Of a stretch of DNA of 64,000 bases, positions 6,161-56,594 are shown piece after piece. Both the position numbers and the translations under genes were made by a program. The number at the start of each line of letters is the position of its first letter. Within the stretch, counting starts at the first letter, position 1. Source of the DNA: Candidatus Daviesbacteria bacterium (GTDB lineage Bacteria > Patescibacteriota > Microgenomatia > Daviesbacterales > UBA10151); contig JACPEW010000020.1 in NCBI GenBank assembly GCA_016183305.1, positions 4,247 through 68,246 on the forward strand, in the 5' to 3' direction. Below the pieces are notes generated by a model that saw only the letters and a list, made by a program, of their open reading frames with translations, was not told the origin of the DNA and did no database searches.

Positions 6161-6235
6161 AGGTTTTGACAACTCCTGAACGATTACTGCATAGAATCTT
6201 GACTAATACATACAAAAACTATATAATTATATTGT

Positions 6236-9498: not shown

Positions 9499-9588
9499 AA
9501 TAATTCAAAATTTAAAATTCAAAATGCGAAATTACAATTCAAAATTAAAAAGTTTAAATAAAAGTTTTCGAAGAAAACTTCCATACTT

Positions 9589-10524: not shown

Positions 10525-10949
10525 TGGTATATAGTATATTGTTTTTGGTGTGCCGTAAATATATAATTTTTAAAGAAAATAAATTTAATTTGTTATATGT
10601 AATTAGGTAAAATTTACTTCCTAAGGTGGTTAGGTAAATTAAAGTTTGGGCAAACACAAGAAATTAGATAGCACTGAAAGGTGTTTAATTTTTGAGTGGC
10701 ATAACCAAGGATTATCTAATATGAACCAACCCATGCCCAATCAATTTCAGAGAAAAGAAGGTAGAATGCCTGGAATGTCAAACAGCCTTTGAAAAGCAAG
10801 AGAATTTTGGATATGTGATTGATCATTTAAGAGGAGGTTGGAGCCCCAACAGACCCAGAAAAAGGTTACAACACAAAACACCACAGGAAGGAAGTATTAC
10901 TCATACCTTAAGGGGTTGCATTAGTTCCTAGAATACAGGAGAATTGTGT

Positions 10950-11615
10950 TTAGCGCCAGTCGATGGGTGTTATCCCGTGTGCCAAAAGGTATTGATTACA
11001 CTTGCTAAAGTGATGTTTGCCAACAAATAGTGATGCAGAATACGGAGATGGATGCCCGGATGTCAGCACTAAATTCTGATCTCTGCTTATTACCTCCCCT
11101 TTGCTTTGGGCATATTTTCCCCATAATAGATATACTATGTGAGTGCGTTTATTGTTAAGTGTCCGGATAACACTATCAGTAAATTGCTCCCAGCCTATTC
11201 CGGCATGAGAGGCAGGCTTATTTACCAGTACTGTTAGTACACTATTTAACATAAGTACACCTTGCTTTGCCCAGCGTGAAAGATCTCCTGAAGGTAGTGG
11301 TTTAACCTGCAAATCATTTTGTATTTCCGAAAATATATTTTTAAGGGAAGGCGGGAGGGGTATGTTGTTATTTACAGAAAAGGATAATCCATTTGCCTGG
11401 CCTGCTCCATGATATGGATCCTGTCCAACAATAACAACTTTTACAGAGTCCAAAGGGCAAAGATCAAAAGCTTTGAAGATATTTACAGCAGGGGGGTATA
11501 CCTGTTTGGTTTGATATTGACCCCGGATATTAGCGGTTAATTCTGCCCAGTATGATTTGAGGAATTCTGGTTCTAATGCTTTTTTCCATGTCGGATCAAT
11601 TTTAATATTATTCAT
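10950..11615 (-). CDS. ung: uracil-DNA glycosylase, family 1
   Basis: GQDPYH water-activating loop, GVLMLN, HPSP motif. GC visibly higher than neighbours. Confidence 0.85.
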   Translation of the reverse strand: MNNIKIDPTWKKALEPEFLKSYWAELTANIRGQYQTKQVYPPAVNIFKAFDLCPLDSVKVVIVGQDPYHGAGQANGLSFSVNNNIPLPPSLKNIFSEIQNDLQVKPLPSGDLSRWAKQGVLMLNSVLTVLVNKPASHAGIGWEQFTDSVIRTLNNKRTHIVYLLWGKYAQSKGEVISRDQNLVLTSGHPSPYSASLFVGKHHFSKCNQYLLAHGITPIDWR

Positions 11616-15569: not shown

Positions 15570-16532
15570 TTAGAGTAAAGGTGGTAAGTTAATTAGCTGG
15601 ACTTCAGGTTCTAAGATAACTCCAAATTTTTCTTTGACTTTTTTAGCATATTCTTTGGCTAAAGTATAAAAAGCTTTAGCTGTGCCAGTACCAGTGTTTA
15701 AGAATAAATTAGCATGGTATGGGGCTATTTCTATACCATCTACAGACTGGTCTTTTGCTCCAACTATTTCTAATAATGTTCCTGCTGGGATTTTTCCATA
15801 AACTATTTTGCCTGCAGGGATTCTGGCTAAGATTTCAGCAGGTAAATCTGAGGCAATTAGGTTTTTGAAAAAACTGCCAGGACATTTAATGCCTTTTGGA
15901 TATTTAATTAATCTGGCTGCTAAAGTTTGCTCAGCTTCTTTTTTGAGTTCAATAGTATCTCCTGCTGTAAGCTGAAATTCAACTTCTAAGATAAAATGAT
16001 GGGTTTTTTTAAAAATGCTATCCCTGTACCCAAACCTACACTCAGGATTGTTAAATTGCTGAATTGTTAAATTATTGGGATTTAAAGTTGTGACTGTAAT
16101 AAGGTGGTCAGAAATTGCCTGGCCATAAGCTCCTGCATTACCATAGATTGCTCCGCCAACAGTACCGGGAATGCCTGCTAATTTTTGCAAGCCAGCAAGT
16201 TGATGGGAAATAGCATAATCAACCAATGCTTGCAAAGGAGTGCCACTTTTAACCTTTACTTTTACAGGCACCTCGGGGGTGGGCTTTGACTCCCCCGAGG
16301 CGGATATTCCCACTATTTCATTTTTTATAACTAGGGCATTCACCCCTTCATCAGCAATTAGTAAATTGCTGCCACCGCCAATTATTAAATAATCCAAATT
16401 ATTTTCTTTGGCATATTGGATAGCTTGAACTAATTCTTCCTGGGTTTTAACTGCTGCAAATTTTTTAGCAGGCCCACCAATAGATAGTGTAGTGATATTT
16501 TTTAATAAGTAGTTATCAATAAATTTAAGCAT
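15570..16532 (-). CDS. murB: UDP-N-acetylenolpyruvoylglucosamine reductase
   Basis: LSIGGPAKKF, IIGGGSNLL, GLQKLAGIPGTVGGAIYGNAGAYG motifs. ATG 16532 (MLKFIDN) preferred over the track start 16580, which overlaps the divergent gene. Confidence 0.85.
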   Translation of the reverse strand: MLKFIDNYLLKNITTLSIGGPAKKFAAVKTQEELVQAIQYAKENNLDYLIIGGGSNLLIADEGVNALVIKNEIVGISASGESKPTPEVPVKVKVKSGTPLQALVDYAISHQLAGLQKLAGIPGTVGGAIYGNAGAYGQAISDHLITVTTLNPNNLTIQQFNNPECRFGYRDSIFKKTHHFILEVEFQLTAGDTIELKKEAEQTLAARLIKYPKGIKCPGSFFKNLIASDLPAEILARIPAGKIVYGKIPAGTLLEIVGAKDQSVDGIEIAPYHANLFLNTGTGTAKAFYTLAKEYAKKVKEKFGVILEPEVQLINLPPLL

Positions 16533-16551: not shown

Positions 16552-17433
16552 ATGGAGAAGGCTATACTTAAGACTCTCATTTATGCTGATATCTTTGATT
16601 ACCCTTTAACTGTATTTGAAATTCATAAATGGTTAATAGGTAAAAAAGCCACCCTCAGGCAAGTAGAGAAGACTCTTTATAAGTTGAGTCGAGAGTCAAG
16701 GGTTAAGAGTCAAGGGGAATATTATTATTTACCCAGAAGAAGTAAATTAGTAAGCAAAAGATTACGCTGCGGGCAGCAGTCTTTAATATATTTTAGAAAG
16801 GCAAAGATGCTTTCTCAAATTTTAAAACTTATTCCCTGGGTAAAACTTGTAGGGATTTCTGGAGGTCTTGCGCTAAATAGTGCCTCTAAAAAGGATGATA
16901 TAGATTTATTTATTATTATCTCTAAAAACAGGTTATGGGTTAGCAGATTATTTATAATAGGACTGTTTTCTTTGATAGGCCAAAGAAGGAAAAAAGGTGA
17001 CCAGGGAAGAAAAATTGCAGGCAAATTCTGTATCAATATCCTGCTTGAAGAAGATAAATTAGAGCAGCAAAATAAAGATATTTTTATAGCACATGAACTA
17101 TTACAAATGAAACCTTTATGGTTTAGAGGCGGGATTTATTCTAAATATCTTTTAGATAATGAGTGGGTTTTTAAATCTTTACCAAACTGGATAGGGAATG
17201 CCAGCCAGGAATTAAGAATTATGAATTATGAATCAAGGAGAAAGCACAAAAACCGCAATTCACTTATAAGTCTTCTAGAGAGTTTTGCTAAATGGTTTCA
17301 ACTTAAGATTATGCAGCAATCCCGAGGCATGGAGCGGATAGAAGATGGGGCTTTATACTTTCATCCAAAAGATTGCAGGCGCGGGGTTTTGTCTAAATAT
17401 AAGCAAAGAGTGAGTTTCATAATCAGTCCTTGA
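16552..17433 (+). CDS. predicted nucleotidyltransferase-fold protein with N-terminal wHTH-like region
   Basis: GISGGLALNSASKKDDIDLFII matches the G[SG]-x(9-13)-D-x-D pol-beta NTase signature. Confidence 0.45.
   Translation: MEKAILKTLIYADIFDYPLTVFEIHKWLIGKKATLRQVEKTLYKLSRESRVKSQGEYYYLPRRSKLVSKRLRCGQQSLIYFRKAKMLSQILKLIPWVKLVGISGGLALNSASKKDDIDLFIIISKNRLWVSRLFIIGLFSLIGQRRKKGDQGRKIAGKFCINILLEEDKLEQQNKDIFIAHELLQMKPLWFRGGIYSKYLLDNEWVFKSLPNWIGNASQELRIMNYESRRKHKNRNSLISLLESFAKWFQLKIMQQSRGMERIEDGALYFHPKDCRRGVLSKYKQRVSFIISP
16686..16713 (+). repeat. 28-bp block of four imperfect heptamers (GAGTCGA GAGTCAA GGGTTAA GAGTCAA)
   Basis: Read directly; lies inside the CDS (LSRESRVKSQGE). Confidence 0.85.
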
Positions 17434-17496: not shown

Positions 17497-17826
17497 ATGT
17501 CAAAAGTTAAAAAAGAGTCAAGAGTCAAGAGTCAAGAGTCAAGGATTAAACCTCTGATGGGTTATATACTGGTTGAACCTTCTGAGGCAGAAAGCAGGAC
17601 AGCCTTAGGTATAATCTTGCCAGAATCAGCTCAAGAAAAGCCAGCCCAGGGAAAAGTAGTAGCTTGTGGTGATGAAATGGTTTTAGAAAATGGCAAAGTG
17701 GTAAAATGCCCAGTTAGTGTTGGAGATAAAGTAGTTTACAAAAAATGGGGCGGGGATGAAATTAAAGCAGATGGCAGGGAATTAAAATTAGTAAAATTTG
17801 ATGACCTAATGGCAATATTGGAGTAA
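17497..17826 (+). CDS. groES: co-chaperonin GroES (with repeat-encoded N-terminal extension)
   Basis: IKPLMGYILVEP...GKVVACG...GDKVVYKKWGG..IK.DG.E. 16 extra N-terminal residues. Confidence 0.9.
   Translation: MSKVKKESRVKSQESRIKPLMGYILVEPSEAESRTALGIILPESAQEKPAQGKVVACGDEMVLENGKVVKCPVSVGDKVVYKKWGGDEIKADGRELKLVKFDDLMAILE
17514..17541 (+). repeat. perfect (AGAGTCA)x4, 28 bp, in the groES 5' end
   Basis: agagtcaagagtcaagagtcaagagtca read directly. Confidence 0.98.
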
Positions 17827-20444: not shown

Positions 20445-21038
20445 ATGGTTAAGTTTCATTACCGGGATTCCCCGACAGACAAACAAAAAAATACTTTTAA
20501 AAAATATTTATCTGAAGATGAAGAGCTGGTTTTGTTAACTGGTTTTTCTCAGGCCTATATTAGGTCTAAATTTATAATTTATTTATTATTCCCTGGTATG
20601 TTTTTTTTGGGATTAAGCTTGGGGTTAGGGTGGGTTTTAGGATTAGATAAAATCTTGGTATTAGTGTTAGGCTTGGTATTAATGTTTATGGCAGCAATCC
20701 TTAGGACCATGCATATTTATCATGCAAATAGGTATTTATTAACAACCAGAAGAGTAATAATTAAAAAAGGTTTATTTTCAGTAAAGCTTACTGCTGCCCT
20801 TTTTGACAAAATTACCCATTTAGAAGTTGATCAGTCATTTGTTGATAGGTTATTTTTGCACCATGGCACAATTATTATTAACACAGCTGGATTAAATAAA
20901 GGAGAAATTCAACTACAGTTTATTGATTATCCATTAGAACTTAAAAACTTGCTTGAAAGGCTTATAAACCGCGAAAGGGAGCAATTTGGACTCCGGGGAG
21001 CAACTTTAACAGAAGTAGAAGGAGAGATTATCTCTTAG
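20445..21038 (+). CDS. membrane protein with bacterial PH (bPH_2/YdbT-like) domain
   Basis: Two TM helices, then YLLTTRRVIIKKGLFSVKLTAALFDKITHLEVDQSFVDRLF..GTIII. Confidence 0.6.
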   Translation: MVKFHYRDSPTDKQKNTFKKYLSEDEELVLLTGFSQAYIRSKFIIYLLFPGMFFLGLSLGLGWVLGLDKILVLVLGLVLMFMAAILRTMHIYHANRYLLTTRRVIIKKGLFSVKLTAALFDKITHLEVDQSFVDRLFLHHGTIIINTAGLNKGEIQLQFIDYPLELKNLLERLINREREQFGLRGATLTEVEGEIIS

Positions 21039-27302: not shown

Positions 27303-28166
27303 TTAAATCTTAAATACTCGTTTGGCGTTTGTGGTTGTTTGTTTAGCTACTTCTTTCAGAGAGCTTCCTTTTAACTCTGCTATCAGTTGGGCAATTTCTT
27401 TGACAGTTGCTGGTTCATTCCTTTGGCCTCTTCTGGATTGAGAAGATAGAAAAGGAGAGTCAGTCTCTAGGATAATCCGGTCTAAAGGAATAATTTTGGC
27501 AGCCTTTCTTAGATATTCATTTTTAGGATAAGTAATATTAGCTGCAAAAGAAATTAGAAAATTAGTGTTTTGCAAGACAGAATCAGTAGTTTGGGGTAAA
27601 CCAGAATAACAATGGTAAATTCCAAAATGATCTTTAGTCATCTCTATAACTTTGTCCCAACATTCAGTATTTTCATGATTTTGGGAACGGTCATCCCTAC
27701 TATGAACTACTAAAGGTAGTTTAAGCCTTTTTGCCAGGTCAATTTGTGCCTGGAATAATTTAACTTCTAATGCTTTAACCTGGTCAAGCGATAGGGCAGA
27801 GGGAATAAATTCAGGATTAAACAGATAGTCCAAACCACACTCCCCAACAGCAACTACTTTTTTTGGGTTAGTACTATAAACTGTCTGTAATTCCTTAATA
27901 TCTCCCTCTAACTTGTCACTTGTCTCTTGTTCCTTGTCACTATACTTGGGGGCCTCGTGTGGGTGAATACCAATAGTTGAGTATACTGATAAGCCTTCAG
28001 GCAAGTTAGTGTTATTAGTTTGATCTAGGGCAATTTGGCTTTTTTCCACATCAACCCCGGTATTGATAATAGTAGTAATGTCAGCATCTAAAGCTCTTTG
28101 GATAACATCGTTAAAATCATCTTTAAAAGAATCCCAATAAAGGTGAGCATGAGTATCAATTAGCAT
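27303..28166 (-). CDS. tatD: TatD family metal-dependent hydrolase
   Basis: MLIDTHAHL, GECGLDY, VVHSRD, ETDSPFL motifs. Confidence 0.85.
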   Translation of the reverse strand: MLIDTHAHLYWDSFKDDFNDVIQRALDADITTIINTGVDVEKSQIALDQTNNTNLPEGLSVYSTIGIHPHEAPKYSDKEQETSDKLEGDIKELQTVYSTNPKKVVAVGECGLDYLFNPEFIPSALSLDQVKALEVKLFQAQIDLAKRLKLPLVVHSRDDRSQNHENTECWDKVIEMTKDHFGIYHCYSGLPQTTDSVLQNTNFLISFAANITYPKNEYLRKAAKIIPLDRIILETDSPFLSSQSRRGQRNEPATVKEIAQLIAELKGSSLKEVAKQTTTNAKRVFKI

Positions 28167-35789: not shown

Positions 35790-36941
35790 ATGAGGATGTT
35801 TACCAGCCGCATCAACATAATTAGAGCTTACTTAAACAAGCAAAAACTTGATGCGGTTTTGATTTCTTCTGTTTTCAATATTACATACCTAACTGGGTTT
35901 TCTAATTTTTCCAAAGAAGAAAGGGAAGCATATTTACTGATTGGTAAGGATTTCCAATATATTATTACTGATGCCAGGTATTCAGAGGCAGTTAAAAGTG
36001 AAGTGCCTCATTTGATATTATTTGAAAGGGGTTATAAGCAATCTACAGAAGACCTTCTTAAAAAGCATAAAAAAGAAATTAAAAATTTGGGGATAGAGGA
36101 AGATGATTTAACTGTAGCAGAACATAAGTTACTCAAAAAACATTTTAAAACTATTAAACATTTAGATATTAAAACTCACCGGGCTATTAAAACCCTTGAA
36201 GAAATAGACAAAATTAAAAAAGCTGCTAAGTTAGGAGATAAAGCTTTTGAATATATTTTGGAAAAGATTAAACCAGGAGTTTCTGAAAAAGAAATTGCTT
36301 TTGAGCTGGAATCTTTTGTTAAAAAATATGGAGCAGATTTAAGCTTTCCTTCTATTGTAGCTTTTGGGAAAAATTCCGCGGTACCTCATCATCAAACAGG
36401 GAATACTAAATTAACTGGCAAAGGAGAATTTGTGTTGTTAGACTTTGGGGTAAAATACAAAAATTATTGTTCTGATATGACCAGGACTGTTTTTTTAGGA
36501 AAACCCTCAGAAAAACAACAAAAAATTTACCAGGCAGTTTTAGCAGCTCAACAAAAAGCGATAGATTTTATCAATAAAAAATTAAAGGCTGGTAAGGAAA
36601 TTAAGGCAGGTGAGGCAGATAAGGCAGCTAGGGATTATATTGTCTCTAAAGGTTATCCCGGTATTCCTCATTCGCTTGGACATGGGATTGGTCTAGAAGT
36701 TCATGAACATCCTTTTCTTTCTTCAAAAAGCAAAGAAGTTTTAAAGGAGGGGATGGTTTTTTCTATAGAGCCGGGTATTTATATTCCTGATTTTGGCCCG
36801 CCTCGCCCGTCTTTGGCGAGGCTTCGTGAGGCTCGCTTCGCGGGCGAAGCGGGAGGAGTAAGAATTGAGGATTTATTTGTTTTAGAAAAGGATAAGCTAA
36901 GTAACATAACTCACAGCCCAAAGCAAATAATTTCAATTTAA
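35790..36941 (+). CDS. pepP: Xaa-Pro aminopeptidase (M24B) carrying an in-frame GC-rich insertion
   Basis: DFG..Y..YCSDMTRT, HSLGHGIGLEVHE, FSIEPGIYIP...GGVRIED. About 19 extra residues sit between the last two motifs. Confidence 0.85.
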   Translation: MRMFTSRINIIRAYLNKQKLDAVLISSVFNITYLTGFSNFSKEEREAYLLIGKDFQYIITDARYSEAVKSEVPHLILFERGYKQSTEDLLKKHKKEIKNLGIEEDDLTVAEHKLLKKHFKTIKHLDIKTHRAIKTLEEIDKIKKAAKLGDKAFEYILEKIKPGVSEKEIAFELESFVKKYGADLSFPSIVAFGKNSAVPHHQTGNTKLTGKGEFVLLDFGVKYKNYCSDMTRTVFLGKPSEKQQKIYQAVLAAQQKAIDFINKKLKAGKEIKAGEADKAARDYIVSKGYPGIPHSLGHGIGLEVHEHPFLSSKSKEVLKEGMVFSIEPGIYIPDFGPPRPSLARLREARFAGEAGGVRIEDLFVLEKDKLSNITHSPKQIISI

Positions 36942-36943
36942 AT

Positions 36944-37501
36944 TTACTTCTGGTAAAACCAAAAATTACCAGCCCCTTTAATATCCTTTGATAAACCTAC
37001 TTCTTTAGAAAAGTCTAATTTCTTAAAAGGCTTCCAATTAGGAAAATGATAAGTCTGGGTAATTATGATAGTGCCTTTTTTTAATTCTTTCTTTAATTTC
37101 TCTTCTAATTTTTTAACACCTTTATGTAATAGGTAAATATAAACAATATCAGCATCTCGGTAGGTTCTTTTAAAAACATCCTCATGATAGAACTCCACAT
37201 TCCCACATCGGAAGTGGGAAGCTAGTTTACTTGTTTGGTATTTAGAATATAAAACCCGTAGCCAGGATTGTTCTATACCAGTAGCATCTGCACCTAGTCT
37301 CGCTGCATGGATAACAACCCTGCCATCTCCTGACCCCAGCTCATAAAACTTTTTCCCTTTTTTAACCCCAGCCAATCTTAGGATCCTCCTAATAATATCT
37401 GAGTTAGTAGGCACATAAGGAGCATCAGATCCAGCAAACCAAGATAGGGCAATAAAGCATCCCAATAATATCCCTCCAGAAATTATTAATGTAATATCCA
37501 T
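36944..37501 (-). CDS. class I SAM-dependent methyltransferase with N-terminal TM helix
   Basis: FYELGSGDGRVVIHAA (motif I), DIVYIYLL (post-II region). Confidence 0.65.
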   Translation of the reverse strand: MDITLIISGGILLGCFIALSWFAGSDAPYVPTNSDIIRRILRLAGVKKGKKFYELGSGDGRVVIHAARLGADATGIEQSWLRVLYSKYQTSKLASHFRCGNVEFYHEDVFKRTYRDADIVYIYLLHKGVKKLEEKLKKELKKGTIIITQTYHFPNWKPFKKLDFSKEVGLSKDIKGAGNFWFYQK

Positions 37502-37651
37502 AATAAGTTAAAAATCAAAAGTAAAAAGTTAAAAGTATGGTAGTTCTGCTTTGCAGAACTTTTTAATTTTAAATTGTAATTTTGATTTTTGAGTCTTCGA
37601 AAAAATAGTCTTTTGAAGAAAGTATATTTTTGCATTTTAAATTTTGAATTA

Positions 37652-38662
37652 CTATTTTCCAAGTAGTTTTAACAAGAAAACCTTAATTGGTGTTAACCGG
37701 TCAATAGCAGTAAATGCTAAATAAATAGGCCAGTTAAATACCAAATCATAAGTACTAATATATTCTACTAACCTGCCACCATATCCCTGTTTAAATCTGT
37801 GGAATCCATACCAGGGGTCTTTTGGGTCTGCATCAGGGCCTAAAGCTCCCCACATATCAAACTTTTTTAAGCCTAATTTCTTGCCTAATTTAATTGCTTC
37901 CCAAGCTACTAAATTATTGGCCATTACCTCCTGATGGGCTTTGGAAGAACCACCATAAGGATAATAAAGAGTGTCTTTAAAATTAAGTAACATCCAGGCA
38001 GTTAGAGGTTGGTTCTTATAATAGGCAATAATCAATCTAACTAGTCCAACTTTTTTTAGAGTTTCCCAAACTTGTTGATGATAATATTGGTTGTGCCCAT
38101 GGTAACCCTGTCTTTTGGTGGTGTCAAAATAGAGTTTTAAATAATCCTTAAAAGCCGCGTCATCTGTTTTAGATTCTACCTTTACCCCATGTCTTTGTGC
38201 AACCCTAATATTATATCTGGTTTTAGAATGCATGTTTTTTAACAATTCCTCTTCTGATTTTGTTAAATCCAAAACAAAGTTATATTTGGTGAAAAGTGGT
38301 TTTGGTGATTTCGTGAATCCATCTGTAACTTGTAACCTGTCCCCTGAAACCTGTTCTATATCTGGCTCTATTTTGACAAAAGCACAATTATTTTTTTTAC
38401 CAATTTCTTTTAAAGCCTCAGCTAGTTGCTTATCTGGGTCTGGCCCTTTAGGCAAATAACCTATATATTGATTGGTAAAGGGAATTTTATGTAAAACTAG
38501 CTGGAAAGCTGCAGTTAATTTATTATTCTGGTAAATGCCATATCTTAAAACCGGAATATCTAAACTTTTTCTAAACTCTCCCCACTCCCAAGACTGAATT
38601 ACATGAGTAACTAACTTATTATATTGAGCTTTCTGTTTGTCAGTGATTGGTCGCAAATCCAT
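37652..38662 (-). CDS. FemAB-family peptidoglycan aminoacyltransferase
   Basis: 336 aa. SWEWGEF, TRYNIR, TTKRQGY..H...Y, YYPYGGSS pattern of FemX/MurM-type enzymes. Confidence 0.75.
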   Translation of the reverse strand: MDLRPITDKQKAQYNKLVTHVIQSWEWGEFRKSLDIPVLRYGIYQNNKLTAAFQLVLHKIPFTNQYIGYLPKGPDPDKQLAEALKEIGKKNNCAFVKIEPDIEQVSGDRLQVTDGFTKSPKPLFTKYNFVLDLTKSEEELLKNMHSKTRYNIRVAQRHGVKVESKTDDAAFKDYLKLYFDTTKRQGYHGHNQYYHQQVWETLKKVGLVRLIIAYYKNQPLTAWMLLNFKDTLYYPYGGSSKAHQEVMANNLVAWEAIKLGKKLGLKKFDMWGALGPDADPKDPWYGFHRFKQGYGGRLVEYISTYDLVFNWPIYLAFTAIDRLTPIKVFLLKLLGK

Positions 38663-38674: not shown

Positions 38675-39349
38675 CTAGAAGATTTGGATTTTAGCTTTAG
38701 AGCGGAGTTCTTGAAATTTTTGCTGGAATATTTGGGATAATTTTTGGTTTCTTAAAGCATCAGTTGCTTCTTTTTTCTGTCCAGCAGAATCTGTAGCTTT
38801 GAGCTGTTCGCTATTTTGTTCTATAAATTCTTCCACCTCTTGTGCAGAAACTGTAGCTTCTTTAGCATAAAGCTTTTCAATAGAAAGTTGGAGTTTAATC
38901 TGTTGTCTAATAGAATCCTTAGTTTGACCTTGTTGAGAAAGCAAAGCATTTAAAGCTTCTGCTCCGCCAATACTGGTTTCTATCTCGGATATTTTTTTGT
39001 TAACTTCTACTTCAGTTACTACAGCATTATTTTTAATTGCCTCGTTTAAAATAACTCTCTCATTAATTAGCTGATTTAAGACTTGAGTACGGAATTCTTT
39101 ATTTAAGCGCAGTTGTAGATCTAAATTAGTAATAGGAGAACTATTAACAGTAGCAGCAATAAACCAATTCTTTTTATATACAGCCAAAAGTAATAATACA
39201 GCAATGATTAAAACAATATAAAAAGTTTTGGATCTTCTAAAATTAATAACCTTATCTGAATAAGTATTTAGAAAATTATTTAACTTACCTCCCGGGATAA
39301 TTTCTAAATTTTGATTTTTGACCTTTGATTTTTGACCTTTTTTCACCAT
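38675..39349 (-). CDS. SurA N-terminal-domain-like periplasmic chaperone (no PPIase domain seen)
   Basis: TM anchor, then VNSSPITNLDLQLRLNKEF..QVLNQLINERVILNEA. Confidence 0.45.
   Translation of the reverse strand: MVKKGQKSKVKNQNLEIIPGGKLNNFLNTYSDKVINFRRSKTFYIVLIIAVLLLLAVYKKNWFIAATVNSSPITNLDLQLRLNKEFRTQVLNQLINERVILNEAIKNNAVVTEVEVNKKISEIETSIGGAEALNALLSQQGQTKDSIRQQIKLQLSIEKLYAKEATVSAQEVEEFIEQNSEQLKATDSAGQKKEATDALRNQKLSQIFQQKFQELRSKAKIQIF
39311..39338. repeat. 28-bp tandem repeat (14-mer x2, heptamer periodicity) in a gene 5' end
   Basis: ttgatttttgacct x2 on the + strand. Encodes KGQKSKVKNQ at the N-terminus of the 38675..39349 product. Confidence 0.95.
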
Positions 39350-40759: not shown

Positions 40760-42682
40760 TTAATAATTTAACCAATCATCTTTGTCCGGACTAGTATCAT
40801 CAAACGAGTCTTGACCCATGAAGTTGCTATTTGAGGTAATTAATTCCTTTGGGATATCTGATAAAAACCGGGAAACTAAATTATTGTTTCTTTGGCCAAA
40901 ATATAATCTTTGTCTGGTATAGGTTAAATATAATTTAATCTTGGCTCTGGTAATACCAACATAACAAAGTCTTCTTTCTTCCTCCAGTTCAGCCATATCC
41001 AGCATTGATCTGGAATGGGGGAATAACCCTTCTTCCATGCCTACCATAAACACTATGGGAAACTCTAACCCTTTGGCAGAATGCAGAGTCATTAAAGTAA
41101 CTGCGTTAGTCAGCTGTTCGCTATTAGCTTTTCGCTTTTGGCCAGATAGATGGCTATTTTCCACTAAAGCCACATTTTCCATAAATTCAATTAGGTTGGG
41201 AAATTCTTCAGCCACTGATCTAAGTTCTTTTACATTCTCTACCCTCCCTTTGCCTTCTTCCGTGCCATCGTCAAGATAGGCTAAATAGCCTGTTTTCTGA
41301 AGTATCTGGTCCAGTAGATCTAATGTGGAATATTGATCTATTTGAGGGCTTACTTCTGCAACAAGCTCCATAACCTTTCCTAACCTGCCTTTGCCAATTT
41401 TTTCAGCCCTTTTTAAAGCAACAGAATCTTTGGGGTTTTGCAGTAAACGGAGATATGAAAGCACATCTTTAATTTCCCTTCTTTCATAAAAGCTCACTCC
41501 TCCTACTAATTTATAGGGGATGCCAGCTTTTAAAAACTGTTCCTCCAAAGACCTTGATTGAGCATTAGTGCGGTACAAAATAGCAAAATCGGATAGTTTA
41601 GGTACACCTCCGGGGTGTGAGTTAGGTGACTGCTTGCGCTCACCTCGGAGGTGAGCTATGGTATCGATGATAAATAGCGCTTCTTCTACCTCATTTCTAA
41701 CTTCTACCACTTCTATTTTTTCTCCATTATCATTACTAGTCCAAAGTTTTAAAATAGGGTGGGACCTATTTTTTGAAATTACTGCAAAAGCTGTATCTAA
41801 GATATTTTGAGTAGATCTATAGTTTTGTTCTAAATTAAAAATTTTTGCGCCAGGATAATCTTTTTGGAAATTCAACATATTCCTATAATCAGCTCCTCTG
41901 AACGAATATATACTTTGTGCCATGTCTCCAACTACACAAATATTTTTGTGTCTGTTGGCCAAATATTTAGAAATTAAATATTGGGCAGGATTAGTATCCT
42001 GGTATTCATCAATTAAAATATACCTAAATTGGATTTGATAGCGGGTTAAAATTCTGGGATCTGTCTGGAAAAGTTTAATGGTTTTTAACAGCAAATCATC
42101 AAAATCTAAAGCATGATTATCCTCTAGAATTTTTTGATATTCCAGATAAATTTTAGCTACAGTTTCCTGAAAATAACCTCTGGCATATTGAGGGTATTCT
42201 AAAGCAGAAATAAGCTCATTTTTAGCTCCTGAGATAGTGGAGCGGACTGCATGAGGGGAAGTTTTTTGGGTAGGAATATTTAATTTACTCATTGCTTGTT
42301 TAATAGCATCTAAAGCATCGCCCTCATCATAAATAGCAAAACCAGGAGGCAGGCCTAAAACTTGGCCTTCCCGGCGCAATATCTTGGTGCAAAAAGAATG
42401 GAATGTTCCCATAACGGGAAGGTTGTAGGTGGTAGTTTGTAGGTTGTAGTTAAGGAGTTTTAAAATGCGGTCCCGCATCTCTCCGGCTGCTTTATTGGTA
42501 AATGTGACCATGAGAATATTTTCAGGAGGAATTTGTTTTTCTTTGATTAAATAAGATACCCGGTGGGTTAAGGCTTTCGTCTTCCCGCTTCCTGCGCCTG
42601 CCAAAATTAAAACCGGGCCTTCAGTGGTTTTAACAGCTTTTCGTTGGATAGGATTTAACTCATCAAGCAGGGAAGAAGACAT
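40760..42682 (-). CDS. pcrA: ATP-dependent DNA helicase PcrA/UvrD
   Basis: AGAGSGKTKALTHR, TFHSFC, LIDEYQDTN, VGDMAQSIYSFRGA, QNYRST, LYRTNAQSR, TLHSAKGLEFP, RRLCYVGITRA. Confidence 0.9.
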   Translation of the reverse strand: MSSSLLDELNPIQRKAVKTTEGPVLILAGAGSGKTKALTHRVSYLIKEKQIPPENILMVTFTNKAAGEMRDRILKLLNYNLQTTTYNLPVMGTFHSFCTKILRREGQVLGLPPGFAIYDEGDALDAIKQAMSKLNIPTQKTSPHAVRSTISGAKNELISALEYPQYARGYFQETVAKIYLEYQKILEDNHALDFDDLLLKTIKLFQTDPRILTRYQIQFRYILIDEYQDTNPAQYLISKYLANRHKNICVVGDMAQSIYSFRGADYRNMLNFQKDYPGAKIFNLEQNYRSTQNILDTAFAVISKNRSHPILKLWTSNDNGEKIEVVEVRNEVEEALFIIDTIAHLRGERKQSPNSHPGGVPKLSDFAILYRTNAQSRSLEEQFLKAGIPYKLVGGVSFYERREIKDVLSYLRLLQNPKDSVALKRAEKIGKGRLGKVMELVAEVSPQIDQYSTLDLLDQILQKTGYLAYLDDGTEEGKGRVENVKELRSVAEEFPNLIEFMENVALVENSHLSGQKRKANSEQLTNAVTLMTLHSAKGLEFPIVFMVGMEEGLFPHSRSMLDMAELEEERRLCYVGITRAKIKLYLTYTRQRLYFGQRNNNLVSRFLSDIPKELITSNSNFMGQDSFDDTSPDKDDWLNY

Positions 42683-44194: not shown

Positions 44195-45877
44195 ATGGTT
44201 AAACTTTTAGACTTTTGGGCTCCTTGGTGTGTAGATCCTCAAACTCCAGTATTAACAGAAAATGGTTATTTGCCTGCTTCAAAAATACAAGTTAATATAA
44301 ATCTACTAACAATTGATCCAAGAACGAAAAAACAGAGTCTTAAAAAGGTTAAAAAAATAAGAATTTTTAAGGATATTCCATCTAAGAGAATAATTTTGGA
44401 AACTGGAATAAATCTAATAGGAGATGTTAATCATCTGGTTTTAACCCAAGAAGGATTTAAGTCTTTAGGCAAGCTTAAGATTGGAGAGAGAGTTTTAATA
44501 AACCCTGTACAGGCTTCAGTTTTCGAACCGATTACTGATACAATCATACTGGAGACCACTGGGAATAATTTTGCTGATAAAGTTTTAAAAAGCTTAAACT
44601 TATTGCCTTTAAGATCAAATGATATCAGATTACCAGTTTTAGCAAGGTTGTTGGGCTTTGTAATGACCGATGGATATTATTTAAGACACAATATTTATGA
44701 AACACATTTTTTTATGGATACGGAAAAGGACGCTCAAGATATAAAAGCGGATTTACAAATTTTAGGTTTTGATAAATTGGAGATTAAACGACAGATCAAA
44801 AATCGCCAAATTGGAGAAAGAAAATTTACAATTAGCATTTTACGTTGTCGTAACTTGAACAAAGCAATATTTTTCTTGCTCAAAGCTTTAGGGGCTCCTG
44901 AAGGAAGAAAGAAAAATCAAGCTTATTTTATTTCGGATTGGATTATGGATGGAGAAAATTCTATTAAAAGAGCCTTTCTGAGTGGGTGGTTAGGTGGTGA
45001 TGGATGTAAAATCACCTATAGAGTAAAACACGAAGGAACAAGTTCTCATGATGCTGGATTTCATGTAAACGCAATCGAATTTCATAAAGAAAAAGAACTA
45101 GAGAAGGAAGGTATACTGTATGCTAAACAATTAGCAATTCTATTTGAGGAACTTGGAGTTGAGGTTAGAGATATATCAAGTAGCGGTGATGAGGATGGGG
45201 TTATTATATATCTTAGAGTTTCGAATTCTTATCCCTCACTACTAAATTTAACCAAGATTGGTTATGCCTATGCTTCGACTAAAAATAAACAAGTCCCCTT
45301 TATAAAGGAGTTTTTGAAGTATAGGTTGTTTGAACGAAGTAGTTATGCTGAGGTTAAAGAAATTGTTTTGAAGCAATTGGCGCTTGGAGTAAGTAATAGA
45401 AGTATAGCCGAAAATTTACAAATTCCTTTACATACAGTAGTCAGTTGGAGATATACAAGTCGCAATTCAAATATCTCGCATCCTTCTAACTCTGGTCAGG
45501 CGCTTTTTACAGAATGGTTGGAAGATAGGCAGGAAGGAAAATTATTGTGGGAAAAGGTAAAATTTATAGGTGATGCTGAGAATCGTGATGTAGTTGGTAT
45601 TACAGTAGCAAATCCCCATACGATTGTGACTAATGGAATAGTTTCTCATAATTGCGGTCCCTGCAGATTAATGAGTTCTATTATTGAAGAACTGGAGAAA
45701 GAATGGGCTGGGAAAGTAGAGGTAGAGAAAATTAATGTTGATGAATCTCCAGATAAAGCTTCTAAATATGGAGTAATGAGTATTCCTACTTTTATTGCCT
45801 TAAAAGATGAAAAAGAAGTAGGCAGGAAAATTGGAGTTACCGCCAAAGAAGATCTTCTTAAGTTGCTGCAATCATAA
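44195..45877 (+). CDS. trxA: thioredoxin precursor containing an intein
   Basis: Exteins MVKLLDFWAPW + CGPCRLMSSIIEELEKEW...YGVMSIPTFIALKDEKEVGRKIGV join to a WCGPC thioredoxin of 85 aa. Confidence 0.85.
   Translation: MVKLLDFWAPWCVDPQTPVLTENGYLPASKIQVNINLLTIDPRTKKQSLKKVKKIRIFKDIPSKRIILETGINLIGDVNHLVLTQEGFKSLGKLKIGERVLINPVQASVFEPITDTIILETTGNNFADKVLKSLNLLPLRSNDIRLPVLARLLGFVMTDGYYLRHNIYETHFFMDTEKDAQDIKADLQILGFDKLEIKRQIKNRQIGERKFTISILRCRNLNKAIFFLLKALGAPEGRKKNQAYFISDWIMDGENSIKRAFLSGWLGGDGCKITYRVKHEGTSSHDAGFHVNAIEFHKEKELEKEGILYAKQLAILFEELGVEVRDISSSGDEDGVIIYLRVSNSYPSLLNLTKIGYAYASTKNKQVPFIKEFLKYRLFERSSYAEVKEIVLKQLALGVSNRSIAENLQIPLHTVVSWRYTSRNSNISHPSNSGQALFTEWLEDRQEGKLLWEKVKFIGDAENRDVVGITVANPHTIVTNGIVSHNCGPCRLMSSIIEELEKEWAGKVEVEKINVDESPDKASKYGVMSIPTFIALKDEKEVGRKIGVTAKEDLLKLLQS
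44228..45652 (+). mobile_element. intein (475 aa) with LAGLIDADG homing-endonuclease domain
   Basis: Starts Cys (CVDPQTPVLTENG), block-B-like GDVNHLVLT, LAGLIDADG motifs LARLLGFVMTDGY and FLSGWLGGDGC, HTH (SNRSIAENLQIPLHTV). Ends VVGITVANPHTIVTNGIVSHN, followed by Cys+1. Confidence 0.85.
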
Positions 45878-48118: not shown

Positions 48119-48728
48119 AGTTGCCTCAAGGCAAAAGTTAATAGAGCTAAAACAAAAGTTTGATCAAAATGATATTGTAGTTTTTGAAGAAAGGGCAAAT
48201 ATTCAGGCAATGTTAGGTAGTTTATCTACTGCCTCTCTTTTTTCTGAGGAAAGATTAATTATTTTAGAAAACCCTTCAGAAGATTCTATTAACTATACCC
48301 TATACCCTATACCCTATACCCTAATATTGTGGTTTGATCATGAGGTAAACCCTAAAAAATGGCCTGGATTTGAGTGTCTGCTATTTTCAGAAGGCAGGGA
48401 AGTGTCTGTTTTTCCCTTTTTGGACTGTTTAGCAGAAGGCAGCAATAAAGCTTTTTTGGAAATAAATAAACTAAAAAAAGCTGGTTTTGAGATCCAATAT
48501 TTTATCACCATGGTTTTTTATTTACTGAGGAATCTGGCAGCTACCCCTAAAAATGCTCCACAATTTGTTAAGGACAAGCTCCAAAGACAAAGAAAAAACT
48601 TCTCCCAAGAAAAAATTACAAAACTATATAAAGAAATATTAGAAATTGATTTTAAAATTAAATCAGGTTTGTTAGAAAAAGACCAGGCAGGATTTCTGCT
48701 AATAAATAAGTTTGTTATCTCCAATTAA
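48087..48728 (+). CDS. possible DNA polymerase III delta subunit (HolA-like)
   Basis: MKLLLLHGP....QKLIELK N-terminus and size resemble minimal HolA. Weak call; start chosen at the second Met. Confidence 0.35.
   Translation: MKLLLLHGPAKVASRQKLIELKQKFDQNDIVVFEERANIQAMLGSLSTASLFSEERLIILENPSEDSINYTLYPIPYTLILWFDHEVNPKKWPGFECLLFSEGREVSVFPFLDCLAEGSNKAFLEINKLKKAGFEIQYFITMVFYLLRNLAATPKNAPQFVKDKLQRQRKNFSQEKITKLYKEILEIDFKIKSGLLEKDQAGFLLINKFVISN
48294..48321 (+). repeat. perfect (TATACCC)x4, 28 bp, inside the CDS
   Basis: tataccctataccctataccctataccc read directly; encodes YTLYPIPYTL. Confidence 0.98.
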
Positions 48729-48738
48729 ATACTATTGT

Positions 48739-49653
48739 TTACCGGGACCCTAAATCCTTAAGCTTTTGGGCCATTAAATCTAAATCTTTTTGATTAACAA
48801 CACCATCTTTATTTAAGTCAGCCTTATTATTTTTAGGATTATTACTGAAGTTTTGTAAAATAATTGCATTATCTGCTGAGTTTATTTTCCCATCACCGTT
48901 TAAATCATAATTTGGTGGAGGAGTCTCTTCTGGAGTAGTTAGATCTAAACTTTGTCCCAGTTTTATAGAAGGCAAAGGTAGTGTGTTGGCTGTTAATTTA
49001 GTTATTAAACTGGCTGATCCTTTATTTGAGATTATGGTAATTTTGGCAGTAGCATCTTCTGTTAAAGAATATATATCAGAAAGGTCATTTTTTCTAAGGT
49101 ATGAAAGAGGAATCAAGAAATTGCCTCCTGTTTTAATCAAGGCAGATTGCAGGTAAGCTCCGGTTACTGAAAGGTAAACAATACCTTCGTTTACAGGAGC
49201 AGTATCATCTAGTGCAGCCCCTATGATTGGAGTAAAACCAGTTTGACTAGCTAGAGATTTTGCTGTTTCAAAGCTTTTAAGCTCAGAAGTAACTTTACCT
49301 GAGGTAATTTTATATTGGTAACGGGCTTGGGGCAGTAAATTTTTTAAAGTTACATAATGGATCAGATGAGGCTTTGGAGCTGTATCCCGGTCATCCAAGG
49401 CTGTTTGTTCAGTTGGGTTCTCTTGACCAAAAGTTACAAAAGAGCTAGCAGGAGTATTGGTTTGCCAAGAAATAGTGACCGAATTTTCTGTTAAGTTTGT
49501 TAGAGTAATATTTTGCGGGGTTAAGTCTGGAGCAGCTTGACTTGTAAATATTTGTTCTTGTAAAACTAAATAGACTCCGCTTGCTAAACCTAAAAAAATT
49601 ATACTGAGCCCTAAAATAGTTGGAATCTTAAATCTGCTTAAAAAATCTGTCAT
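48739..49653 (-). CDS. secreted FN3-like plus dockerin-repeat protein
   Basis: PQNITLTNLTENSVTISWQT (FN3-like). C-terminal DLNGDGKINSADNAIIL and DLNKDGVVNQKDLDLM (dockerin/EF-hand-like repeats). Confidence 0.55.
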   Translation of the reverse strand: MTDFLSRFKIPTILGLSIIFLGLASGVYLVLQEQIFTSQAAPDLTPQNITLTNLTENSVTISWQTNTPASSFVTFGQENPTEQTALDDRDTAPKPHLIHYVTLKNLLPQARYQYKITSGKVTSELKSFETAKSLASQTGFTPIIGAALDDTAPVNEGIVYLSVTGAYLQSALIKTGGNFLIPLSYLRKNDLSDIYSLTEDATAKITIISNKGSASLITKLTANTLPLPSIKLGQSLDLTTPEETPPPNYDLNGDGKINSADNAIILQNFSNNPKNNKADLNKDGVVNQKDLDLMAQKLKDLGSR

Positions 49654-52998: not shown

Positions 52999-54771
52999 AT
53001 GAATATACGGAATTTCTCAATAATTGCTCATGTTGATCATGGCAAATCAACCTTAGCAGATAGGTTGCTGGAAATAACTGGTACTATACCTAAAGATAAG
53101 CTGCAGCCTCAGCTTCTAGATTCTTTGGCTTTGGAACGTGAACGCGGTATTACTATTAAGCTTGCTCCTGTCCGTATGTCTTACATTCTGAATTCTGAAT
53201 TATACATTCTAAATTTAATTGATACTCCTGGCCATGTTGACTTCTCCTATGAAGTTTCCAGGGCTTTGGCAGCAGTAGAAGGAGCGATATTGTTAGTTGA
53301 TGCTACTCAGGGAATTCAGGCTCAAACTCTGGCTCATGGTTTAGCTGCTTTAGAGCAAAACCTAACTTTGATACCTGTTATTAATAAAATCGATTTACCA
53401 AATGCTGATATAGAAAATACCAAAAATCAACTGATGGAAACTTTTGGTTTTTCTGATGAAGAAATACTGCTTGTTTCTGGTAAGACTGGTCAGGGTGTGG
53501 ATAAATTACTAGAGATAATTGTAACTAAGGTTCCGCCGCCAAAGCAGGAAATAGGAAATGCTTTAAGAGCTTTAATTTTTGATTCATTTTTTGACAGCTT
53601 CAAAGGAGTAGTTGCCCAAGTTAGGATTGTAGAAGGCCAAACTCCGCCAAATCAAACTCCAATTGTATTTTTAGGTACAAAAGCGTCGGGGTATGTTTTA
53701 GAAAGTGGTTTTTTTGCTCCGCAGTTAACACCGGAAAATGGTTTAAAATCAGGCGAGATAGGCTATATTGCTACAGGGATTAAAGAGCCAGATTTAGTAA
53801 GAGTTGGTGACACTATTGCCACAGATTTTTCTTCTCAGCCTTTGCCTGGATACAAGCAAGTAAAACCAATGGTTTTTGTGGGGCTTTTCCCAATAGATGC
53901 AGATAAATATTTTGAACTTAAAGAAGTGCTGGGAAAATTTAAGTTAACTGATCCAGCTTTTTCTTATCTGCCGGAACAGTCACAAGCTTTGGGAGCAGGT
54001 TTTAGATGCGGGTTTTTAGGTTTGCTTCATGCTGAAGTTGTTCAGGAAAGATTATCTAAAGAGTTTAATATGGATGTGCTGGCTACTGCTCCCTCAGTAG
54101 AATATTTGCTGGATGATCAGCCAATTACTTCGCCTACTGAACTTACCGAGGGAGACAATACTAAAAATCTAAAAGAGCCTTGGGTAAACCTTAGGATCTT
54201 TGTACCACAAACTTATATTGGTCCAGTTATGGAATTAGTGCAGGATAAAAGAGGAAAGTTTTTAGATATGCAGCATTTTGGGTTACAAGTTGAGTTAAGT
54301 TATGAAATGCCTTTATCTGAGATGGTGACTAATTTTTATGATAAACTAAAATCAGTTTCCTCAGGTTTTGCTTCTTTGGATTGGGCATTGATAGATTTTA
54401 GGGAGGTAAATGCAGTAAGGGTAGATATCATGGTGGGAGGAGAAAAAGTAGATGCCCTGTCTTCTATTATTTTTAAGCCTAAGGCAGAAAGTTTTGGCAG
54501 GCAGATAGTGGAGAAATTAAAAGAAGTTTTACCCAGGCAAAATTTTTCAGTAGCAATACAGGCTGCTATTGGGGGAACTATTATTGCCAGAGAGACAATT
54601 TCACCATTTAGAAAAGATGTTTTGATGCATGGTAGCAAGGTCGTTGGCGGAGGGGACTACAGCCGCAAGAGAAAACTTTTGGAAAAACAGAAAAAAGGCA
54701 AAAAGAAAATGAAAATGATCGGTAAAGTGGAAATCCCCCAAGAGGCGTTCTTGTCAATTCTTAAGAGTTAG
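52999..54771 (+). CDS. lepA: translation elongation factor 4
   Basis: IRNFSIIAHVDHGKSTLADR, DTPGHVDF, NKIDL and the LepA C-terminal domain. Confidence 0.95.
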   Translation: MNIRNFSIIAHVDHGKSTLADRLLEITGTIPKDKLQPQLLDSLALERERGITIKLAPVRMSYILNSELYILNLIDTPGHVDFSYEVSRALAAVEGAILLVDATQGIQAQTLAHGLAALEQNLTLIPVINKIDLPNADIENTKNQLMETFGFSDEEILLVSGKTGQGVDKLLEIIVTKVPPPKQEIGNALRALIFDSFFDSFKGVVAQVRIVEGQTPPNQTPIVFLGTKASGYVLESGFFAPQLTPENGLKSGEIGYIATGIKEPDLVRVGDTIATDFSSQPLPGYKQVKPMVFVGLFPIDADKYFELKEVLGKFKLTDPAFSYLPEQSQALGAGFRCGFLGLLHAEVVQERLSKEFNMDVLATAPSVEYLLDDQPITSPTELTEGDNTKNLKEPWVNLRIFVPQTYIGPVMELVQDKRGKFLDMQHFGLQVELSYEMPLSEMVTNFYDKLKSVSSGFASLDWALIDFREVNAVRVDIMVGGEKVDALSSIIFKPKAESFGRQIVEKLKEVLPRQNFSVAIQAAIGGTIIARETISPFRKDVLMHGSKVVGGGDYSRKRKLLEKQKKGKKKMKMIGKVEIPQEAFLSILKS

Positions 54772-56243: not shown

Positions 56244-56288
56244 GTGAAAATATCCCAAGAAGCATTTTTAAGTATCCTCAAGAGTTGA
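56244..56288 (+). pseudogene. diverged fragment of the lepA 3' end (copy 2)
   Basis: Encodes VKISQEAFLSILKS-stop versus VEIPQEAFLSILKS-stop of lepA (54727..54771). About 30/45 nt identical, with most differences synonymous. Confidence 0.8.
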
Positions 56289-56292
56289 CAAG

Positions 56293-56313
56293 TAATGTAT
56301 AATGTATAATGTA
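56293..56313 (+). repeat. (TAATGTA)x3 between a TTGACA box and the vapB start
   Basis: ttgaca(56285..56290)-ag-taatgta-taatgta-taatgta, with the last 'a' being the A of ATG 56313. Confidence 0.95.
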
Positions 56314-56594
56314 TGATTAGAAAACAGATATACCTGACACCCGAAATAGATAGAGAATTGAATATTCTTGCCAGACAGCAGGGTAAAAGCATGGCTGAAA
56401 TTGTCAGGGATATTCTAGAGAAAAGGCTAAAAATTAGCGAGAGACCAAAAAATACTGTTGAAGGTTTCTTAAATAGGATAACAGGAATTGGTAAGAAAGG
56501 CCCCCATGATTTATCTACAAACCTATTCAATTATCTGTATGGTGACAAGTCCCCTAATTATGGTAAACACAAGAAAATTACTCGTAGACGCTGA
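56313..56594 (+). CDS. vapB: ribbon-helix-helix (CopG/VapB-type) antitoxin
   Basis: MIRKQIYLTPEIDRELNILARQQGKSMAEIVRDILEKRL. Confidence 0.7.
   Translation: MIRKQIYLTPEIDRELNILARQQGKSMAEIVRDILEKRLKISERPKNTVEGFLNRITGIGKKGPHDLSTNLFNYLYGDKSPNYGKHKKITRRR

Follow-up and report, generated by a model that had tools for sequence, protein, structure and literature searches.

Why should a loop of a clamp-loader gene be built of four uninterrupted copies of a single heptanucleotide, and why should blocks of the same design, each with a unit of its own, turn up in other genes nearby? The question is raised by a stretch of 64,000 nucleotides from a Candidatus Daviesbacteria bacterium (contig JACPEW010000020.1), referred to here as the window, in which a holA-like gene carries (TATACCC)x4.4 on the plus strand at positions 48293-48323, with 100% matches and equally readable as (CTATACC)x4.4, encoding NYTLYPIPYTL. 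The surroundings, with a GC content of 0.33-0.39, hold ordinary housekeeping genes (groES/groEL, pcrA, an AddA-like helicase-nuclease gene, metG, lepA, tatD, femAB, murB and murJ), besides this clamp-loader-delta-like gene and toxin-antitoxin pairs. A preliminary description of the same DNA had listed six such blocks, and all of them were recovered, to within a few bases, when Tandem Repeats Finder (TRF) was run on the window. The list could be extended by six further arrays, namely the pair near groES that had been handled separately (17209-17237 and 17513-17543) and four that had been missed (9502-9551, 38323-38354, 41113-41139 and 53185-53201), so that the window holds 12 period-7 arrays, 9 of which are coding. 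Our results indicate that arrays of about four heptamers are a real, lineage-specific mutational signature, related to the heptamer repeats known from other bacteria yet distinct from them.

The expectation against which the arrays were judged came from third-order Markov shuffles (60 for the window). TRF was also applied to 80 pcrA-centred loci of relatives, one genome per species, to which 17 further loci were added later; handles such as L081 refer to the loci of this survey. Copy numbers were counted in 681 kb of Microgenomates-like DNA, total array lengths in 810 kb, and 733 kb of Saccharibacteria and other lineages were surveyed as well. In the window, period 7 accounted for 14 of the 54 TRF rows, against 2.9 expected and a maximum of 7 among the shuffles, and a second statistic, which counts stretches of 11 or more bases that match the sequence exactly at offset 7, gave 4 against 0.07 expected, with no other period behaving alike. 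In the 681 kb, two-copy arrays showed no significant surplus (30 observed, 23 expected), while the ratio rose to 24/4.5 at three copies and 45/0.6 at four, followed by 10/0.2 at five and 2/0 at both six and seven. When total length was considered instead, the excess topped out at 30-34 nt (41 arrays against 0.5 expected), individual arrays ranging from 20 to 43 nt and reaching 69 nt. Periods 5, 6, 8, 10 and 11 were near expectation, and no comparable ridge around 30 nt was seen at any other period, a modest excess being found only at periods 12, 15, 18 and 21, where in-frame duplications account for it. The comparison with shuffled controls that the preliminary description had recommended thus yields a clear excess of both period 7 and arrays of about 30 nt, in the window as well as in the loci of its relatives. 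Its more specific statement, that a period of 7 recurs together with a total length of about 28 bp, stands for the period and for the coding arrays of the window (27-32 bp), but not for its three intergenic arrays, which measure 22, 37 and 50 bp.

The signal is confined to certain lineages. No excess of period 7 was found at any copy number in the 733 kb of Saccharibacteria and other lineages, and within the remaining sample the distribution is patchy: the arrays are strongly represented in most Daviesbacteria and in L019, L058 and L072, they are absent from the equally AT-rich L006, L010, L011, L016, L018, L020 and L021, and one Daviesbacteria locus, L097, has none in 20 kb. An origin in chance, base composition or faulty assembly would have some appeal, given that AT-rich DNA raises the number of chance repeats and that all sequences used here are metagenome assemblies. 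Composition-matched shuffles, however, already refute it by returning 0.6 four-copy arrays where 45 were seen, relatives of equal AT content lack the arrays, and the arrays occupy the same sites in independent assemblies (NCBI, JGI, ENA and Logan) with reading frames intact, so that we regard this origin as practically negligible.

Another point worth considering is the shape of the copy-number distribution. In array-rich loci, short arrays of 2-3.8 copies exceed chance by only about 30, which is fewer than the arrays of about four or more copies. The mode at four copies is not an artefact of detection, because masking the period-7 TRF rows of array-rich loci and scoring windows again at offset 7 left no self-similarity, array-free genomes being flat in the same assay. 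Short arrays hidden from TRF were considered as a separate candidate and are ruled out by the same absence of residual signal. Random stepwise slippage, which the preliminary description had doubted, is indeed at odds with a mode at four copies, with the lack of a two-copy surplus and with the absence of copy-number polymorphism between strains.

If arrays were scars of single events, they would not be expected at corresponding places in different species, which is where they are found. At seven sites, namely the holA loop, pcrA loops 1 and 2, the femAB loop, the N-terminal tails of a SurA-like protein and of GroES, and a LepA hairpin, about four heptamers occur at the identical place with a unit specific to the species. 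The closest species-level relatives of the window share 74-78% PcrA identity with it, and in pcrA loop 1 every close Daviesbacteria relative has about four heptamers, with TACAACC in the window, L007 and L009, TATACCC in L002, CTACGAA/CTACCAA in L001, L043 and L032, CCATGAA/CCATCAA in L003 and CTCATCA/CTCAGTA in L005. AAACGAT arrays occupy pcrA loop 2 in L001 and L088. At the holA site, for which a metagenome scan returned only 11 loci, perfect arrays are made of TATACCC (window and L081), TACCAAC (L005 and L085) or TTTCACT (L088), and intermediate, decayed and non-periodic forms are also present among about 108 orthologs. The femAB site has other units in L007, L043, L013 and L072, the LepA site carries arrays in L001, L004, L005, L043 and L088, and the SurA-like tail does so at the same site in L004 and L088, L081 having a tail of the same length with its units re-patterned.

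Because units within a species are more alike at the holA site (identity 0.73) than their counterparts between species (0.51 for the same unit index, and 0.51 for different indices), the copies evolve in concert. Single changes that have reached most of an array are seen as well: in L093 groES, AAGAGTC has become AAGAATC in three of four units, and in pcrA loop 2 of L081 the first position of the unit has become A in three units with no change in length. Such parallel three-of-four substitutions, together with the difference between 0.73 and 0.51, are the behaviour of a concertedly evolving tandem array subject to molecular drive. Analyses of AABB, ABAB and ABBA columns and of the index of the odd unit should be read with the small number of 2:2 columns in mind, and with the bias that TRF end-trimming introduces at edge units. 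The arrays are, in summary, old and positionally conserved features that change in concert, and for that reason the repair scar proposed in the preliminary description does not describe them. Its remark that the units are unrelated in sequence is approximately right, as 81 arrays carry 59 distinct canonical units, mostly A-rich, although TATACCC, AACTACC, AAACGAT and TTTCACT do recur across genes and species. TATACCC, for example, is shared by holA of the window, pcrA of L002 (920) and lepA of L005 (1557), and AAACGAT likewise recurs at different genes in different species.

Templated insertion, also put forward in the preliminary description, predicts segments lengthened by the array, and this is generally not what the orthologs show. 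In about 108 HolA orthologs, the segment between conserved flanks measures 17 aa in 64 and 18 aa in 31, with no length classes 7 aa away in either direction. The FemAB loop has 32-36 aa whether an array is present (window, L007, L043, L013 and L072) or not (L011, L016, L018 and L021). PcrA loop 2 has 44-45 aa when it carries an array, 42-43 being the norm of the family, and the GroES tail, which is non-repetitive and 13 aa long in 77 of 120 Daviesbacteria homologs, is 13 aa long with an AAACGAT array and 16 aa long in the window. Since the femAB, pcrA (both loops), holA and GroES-tail segments are equally long with and without arrays, the blocks are not insertions, the insert in LepA of L081, discussed below, being the exception. 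Independently of this, seven HolA orthologs (P0013, P0042, P0082, P0064, P0069, P0045 and P0118) have 6-12 extra aa within the array-encoded peptide, and the inserts resemble each other (LGEAASSA, PDKVGASSA and VSAESGKASSA), which hints at small insertions of another type being directed at the holA array.

The same lengths bear on a simpler account of the block size, in which slippage adds units freely and only gains of three survive selection in a coding sequence, given that three heptamers make 21 nt, or 7 codons; a block of 28 bp would then be one original unit plus three, and copy number would jump from 1 to 4 and then to 7 and 10. Few arrays exceed 6 copies, and the long coding ones, with 7.7 and 10.3, do fit such a series. 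It is also true that pcrA loop 2 of the array-bearing L001 (44 aa) exceeds that of L003 (37 aa) by exactly 7 aa, and that in the window the coding arrays keep to a narrower range of length than the intergenic ones. The HolA orthologs, however, lack the 7-aa classes that this account requires, array-bearing loops are no longer than their array-free orthologs, and copy numbers of 5.4-5.9 are found for several coding arrays, including a perfect one. The missing 21-nt insertion at the birth of an array, which would speak against this account, is already largely the case at four sites, and steps of three units would presumably be unable to homogenise neighbouring units, which nevertheless is observed. 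Moreover, arrays that are unambiguously non-coding also have 4.1-4.7 copies (TAATTTC x4.4 in L024, for instance, has stops in all six frames), and a reading-frame filter alone therefore leaves the length unexplained. As the sole cause of the 28-bp size the filter is ruled out by the lack of a 7-aa quantum and by these non-coding arrays, and we consider frame-filtered expansion improbable in general.

Coding sequence does, however, leave a trace of another kind. Consensus units that would create an in-frame stop if the array were perfect are found in 28 of 69 coding arrays, against a null fraction of 0.385 for random sense-strand heptamers (p=0.71), and as such units are not depleted, the choice of unit is blind to coding. 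It is at the codons that would otherwise read as stops that deviations from the consensus cluster, and none of the 9 perfect arrays has a unit that gives a stop; in AAACGAT arrays, for example, TAACGAT in L096 groES and AAACGAC in L001 pcrA keep the frame open. These data point to a pressure at the DNA level that drives units toward identity, with lethal positions held back by selection. Most arrays lie in coding sequence, 103 of 129 period-7 rows and 69 of 81 arrays of at least 3.85 copies being inside long stop-free frames, and the coding arrays sit in N-terminal tails or variable loops.

Over shorter times the arrays are stable. As the exact HolA and GroES proteins of the window are absent from the contig index, strain-level comparison covered the nearest relative of the window, L081, and three near-identical pairs, all as assembled sequences, and no copy-number change was detected in these assemblies between L081 and the window (holA and SurA-like tail), between L094 and L095, or between L088 and L089. 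The holA array is identical in L081 in spite of about 10% divergence of the flanking DNA, and L094 and L095, which differ at 182 of 4152 positions (4.4%) with 0 gaps, keep the length of four arrays, with a single substitution in their 133 array nucleotides. Of the presence/absence polymorphism that the preliminary description had suggested looking for between strains, the strain pairs compared show none, and a case of it was seen only in the LepA insert of the relative L081.

The reading that we favour is that the heptamer arrays arise from strand misalignment in a 7-nt register, acting as a length-neutral conversion in segments under low constraint. It is a mechanism inferred from patterns, and we would assign it a probability of about one half. 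In lineages with this tendency, strands being replicated or repaired would slip out of alignment by exactly one 7-nt register, and the misalignment would show mainly as length-neutral copying between adjacent units, that is, as gene conversion leading to concerted evolution. Gain or loss of units would go unseen because, as we propose, adding or removing a net 7 or 14 nt would put a housekeeping gene out of frame. Arrays would last only where the sequence is nearly free to vary, such as surface loops, N-terminal tails and 5' leaders, and there their site and length would stay constant over long periods, while point mutations would either vanish or spread through the units until each species has its own. 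Selection would veto only those conversions that give an in-frame stop or a harmful residue. The mode of about four copies (27-35 bp) might then reflect a balance between the minimum length at which an array maintains itself and the cost of longer, frameshift-prone tracts. This conversion reading is based on the period-7 excess, its lineage specificity, the conservation of position and length, the concerted change, the blindness to stop codons and the lack of copy-number polymorphism. According to two reports (PMC4692102, PMC4679880), a slippage bias related to a 7-nt polymerase footprint was proposed by Mrazek, Guo and Shah in 2007 to explain the excess of heptanucleotide repeats in other bacteria.

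Several findings weigh against this interpretation. No misalignment or conversion event has been seen directly, and a gradual process of conversion predicts a tail of short proto-arrays, whereas TRF masking leaves no offset-7 signal and arrays of 2-3.8 copies are outnumbered by those of about four. The clear non-coding arrays cluster at the copy numbers given above, which the frame argument does not explain. One unit may also occupy two genes of one genome, as AACTACC does in pcrA and holA of L085 (5725 and 10201) and TTTCACT in the SurA-like tail and holA of L088 (898 and 10205), a situation that local homogenisation alone would not predict. In the GroES tail, comparison of L096 with L097 gives the impression that about 31 nt were overwritten wholly, at equal length, rather than piecemeal. 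Finally, some sites do undergo a net change of length. In LepA of L081 (15598-15912, corresponding to 53178-53202 of the window), repeats of heptamers and 14-mers make up an additional insert of about 105 nt that keeps the frame (about 36 aa rich in N, K, E and I), at a place where the window reads ATTCTGA x2.4; this is the sole clear presence/absence length polymorphism that we found.

Some of these observations would sit more comfortably with a modified form of the idea in the preliminary description, according to which a protein-measured or otherwise length-defined step may be at work. Some Microgenomates could possess an undescribed DNA transaction in which a local 7-nt template, and not the complementary strand, is occasionally copied reiteratively, overwriting about 30 nt of existing sequence with a 7-periodic patch and leaving the length unchanged. 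Such a lineage-specific step of replication or repair, possibly gap filling or priming, with the size of the gap or primer as its ruler, might come and go as one replication or repair factor is gained or lost, and the arrays would be the traces that it leaves, seen only at places where selection allows them. A narrow mode at 30-34 nt that is specific to period 7, the same size in non-coding arrays, the lack of proto-arrays and the wholesale replacement in the L096 GroES tail all agree with this, and array-rich and array-free sister lineages are intermixed as gain and loss of one factor would make them. Nonetheless, we think patch writing unlikely. Array lengths are more spread than a ruler would suggest, and changes of three units out of four between close relatives indicate that small events continue, and not only full-size writes. 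The window, moreover, offers no candidate enzyme, holding housekeeping genes only and neither a reverse transcriptase nor a transposase. To our knowledge no bacterial process writes such patches, which also counts against the idea.

Turning to the individual arrays of the window, in the coding ones the heptamer is read in all three frames and therefore gives a peptide with a period of 7 aa (YTLYPIP-YTL in holA, ESRVKSQ-ESR in groES). The HolA-like label of the open reading frame at 48051/48090-48728 comes from a Pfam match to DNA_pol3_delta_C, and its AlphaFold2 model (mean pLDDT, the predicted local distance difference test score, 88.8) has as top Foldseek matches the delta subunits of B. subtilis and E. 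coli (3zh9 and 1jr3_D). The model places the array in a 15-residue coil, residues 62-76, between two beta-strands. Just past the identical holA array of L081 (about 10245-10265) an A18 tract encodes FHKKKKKKW where the window (48330-48350) reads DHEVNPKKW, which may be a real homopolymer or an assembly artefact, and directly after holA in L081 a Phd/ParE toxin-antitoxin pair (10672-11193) is found that is absent from the window (48728-48739).

PcrA, encoded on the minus strand, has two of the arrays: TACAACC x4.3 in the sense orientation at 42420-42451 (82% matches; NYNLQTTTYNL, aa 78-88) in loop 1, and GAAAAGC x3.9 at 41113-41139 (80% matches; aa 515-524) in loop 2. Also on the minus strand are the array in the N-terminal tail of the SurA_N-like protein (39309-39340; (TTTGATTTTTGACC)x2.2 with 100% matches, the 14-mer amounting to 3.9-4.4 heptamers, codons 4-14), that of the FemAB-family loop (38323-38354; sense ACAGGTT x4.6, 68% matches, aa 103-114) and that of tatD (27911-27941; sense GACAAGT x4.4, 79% matches, aa 76-86, SDKEQETSDK). 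The tatD consensus unit would produce an in-frame stop if the repeat were perfect, and the TatD segment, which is a variable one, exceeds its counterpart in the solved structures 2gzx and 6l25 by about 11 aa. On the plus strand, the GroES N-terminal tail is encoded by a perfect (AAGAGTC)x4.4 at 17513-17543 (KESRVKSQESR), lepA has (ATTCTGA)x2.4 at 53185-53201 inside a 21-nt repeat (YILNSEL/YILN) in a beta-hairpin before LIDTPGH, and a hypothetical open reading frame (16552-17433) has GAATTAA x4.1 at 17209-17237 with 86% matches. The 293-aa product of the latter, which sits between murB and groES and has no Pfam match, contains one heptamer array in the window and three different ones in its L094 homolog (5557-6435), and the gene is absent from L097. 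Toxin-antitoxin modules around groES also differ among L093-L096.

Two other features of these genes were recorded. Inteins are distributed reciprocally between the window and its close relative L081, as the thioredoxin of the window (44195-45877) has 560 aa with a weak Intein_splicing match and that of L081 (7439-7696) has 85 aa, while PcrA of L081 (2005-5253) has 1082 aa with intein and LAGLIDADG domains and that of the window (40760-42682) has 640 aa and lacks them. A repeat of a different kind, AAATTAAGGCAGGTAAGG x2.7 with a period of 18/9 and in frame, lies in an M24 peptidase gene at 36579-36627.

All three intergenic arrays of the window abut start codons. One (37501-37537, degenerate heptamers x5.3, 73% matches) touches the start codon of a methyltransferase gene on the minus strand (36944-37501), another (9502-9551, AATTCAA-like x7.3, 75% matches) lies 3 nt upstream of the start codon of an S-adenosylhomocysteine (AdoHcy) hydrolase gene on the minus strand, and the third, a perfect (TAATGTA)x3.1 at 56293-56314, is directly upstream of, and overlaps, the ATG of a ribbon-helix-helix (RHH) antitoxin gene (56313-56594) that is followed by a PIN toxin gene in a vapBC-like pair. 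Counting the GroES (17513-17543) and SurA-like (39309-39340) tails along with these, five arrays of the window are within about 50 nt of a start codon. The last of the intergenic arrays had been assigned to a vapB promoter in the preliminary description. At 56285-56315 a perfect TTGACA precedes the array and two TATAAT hexamers lie within it, the nearer one at only 14-nt spacing; a sigma-70 consensus scan of this array on the strand of the gene returned no match with 16-18-nt spacing. The array may be a promoter or operator, and hence a repeat of another kind than those inside genes.

A further possibility is that the periodic DNA, RNA or peptide is itself useful, for example as a binding site for a protein in 7-nt register, as a leader for translation initiation, or as a beta-hairpin-like YxL...YxL peptide. 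Conservation of the hot spots over deep divergence would agree with a selected function, as would the promoter-like hexamers overlapped by the vapB-proximal array, and heptamer repeats are known to be bound by cold-shock proteins, with a single protein on each heptamer (reviewed in PMC4679880). Arrays within 60 nt on either side of a predicted start are modestly enriched (15 of 81, or 18.5%, against 9.9% expected; p ~0.015), a figure that is uncorrected for orthology and inflated by the repeated counting of orthologous sites. Among the units shared between genes many encode Y-[TNQ]-L, and units of this type are found in holA, pcrA and lepA. On the other hand, 59 units among 81 arrays leave no common binding motif, and as the unit differs from one array to the next, the explanation does not lie in sequence-specific binding. 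Many orthologs retain the gene with decayed or non-periodic sequence at the hot spot, whole sister lineages do without arrays, the unit is chosen blindly with regard to coding, and the holA array is modelled as coil. Selection for the repeat itself accordingly seems to us a quite improbable cause.

The arrays have implications beyond this locus. That heptanucleotide repeats are over-represented in certain bacteria has been on record since 2007, no cause having been put to the test, and the Daviesbacteria lineage provides a clean system in which to study this: the arrays belong to housekeeping genes that can be aligned, which allows the past of each site to be traced, and as array-rich and array-free genomes are close relatives (the window and L097, or L019 and L020), the determinant could be within reach of comparative genomics. 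More generally, the arrays show that in reduced genomes the loops and N-terminal tails of proteins can be rewritten over and over by a bias at the DNA level, which is also a practical caveat for alignment, gene calling and the reading of supposed insertions in proteins of the Candidate Phyla Radiation (CPR).

In spite of these particularities, the arrays share features with several known systems. They are closest to the long heptanucleotide simple sequence repeats (SSRs) of prokaryotes, which likewise have a 7-nt unit and are over-represented in scattered lineages and absent from relatives. In the literature (PMC4692102, PMC4679880), such repeats are described mainly from larger genomes, those of Burkholderia, Xanthomonas, cyanobacteria and actinobacteria, and units that are not a multiple of three are reported there mostly outside coding regions. 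Our arrays show the same excess over matched random sequence and the same restriction to period 7 and to certain lineages, but they lie mostly inside housekeeping genes, and they have about four copies, are conserved in position across species, change in concert and are length-neutral. A literature search returned no report of such arrays for CPR/Patescibacteria.

Two better defined heptamer families differ more. The short tandemly repeated repetitive (STRR) sequences of cyanobacteria and the GGGGA(T/C)T and GGGAATC repeats of Nostoc and Xanthomonas are tandem heptamers that recur between the same genes of related species, with variable sequence and length (PMC4692102). Like some arrays of L058, they sometimes form inverted pairs (PMC4692102). 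They employ one or few genome-wide units, G-rich and able to form G-quadruplexes, in up to 26 copies and between genes (PMC4692102), whereas here 81 arrays, mostly coding and mostly A-rich, use 59 units in about four copies, so that neither type is matched. The L058 pairs are intergenic (15706-15735 facing 15793-15821, 8970-8996 facing 9016-9046, and 20557-20595 facing 20956-20988); an example is (AATTTCC)x4 facing (GGAAATT)x4, 57 nt apart, and they may form long hairpins such as terminators, or be products of template switching. The TAACTGA repeats of marine Beggiatoaceae, some cyanobacteria and Bacteroidetes, with 2-6 heptamer copies often immediately upstream of start codons (PMC4679880), recall the three intergenic arrays of the window in their location. 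That case, however, involves a single specific unit, related heptamers not being repeated, is intergenic, and has been suggested to have a regulatory role and to spread horizontally (PMC4679880).

Contingency SSRs, such as the heptanucleotide tract of H. influenzae hmw1A, are tandem short units attributed to slipped-strand mispairing, and they are long, hypermutable in copy number and located in surface or virulence genes or their promoters (PMC8262952). Ours, in contrast, show no change of copy number between strains or species, reside in essential housekeeping genes (holA, pcrA, groES, lepA, tatD and femAB) and leave the frames intact. The perfect tandem repeats of Borgs are alike in being genome-specific bursts with an own unit per locus, flanked by partial repeats and adding low-complexity or disordered segments to the protein (PMC9879509). 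In Borg reading frames, though, the units have lengths that are multiples of three, and the repeats, which are long, perfect and recent, differ in number inside a population (PMC9879509), whereas the arrays described here have a 7-nt unit read in all three frames and are old, short and fixed in length. The arrays of the window and its relatives are thus a variant of the known heptanucleotide-repeat class, new in their coding location, in the diversity of their units and in their fixed length.

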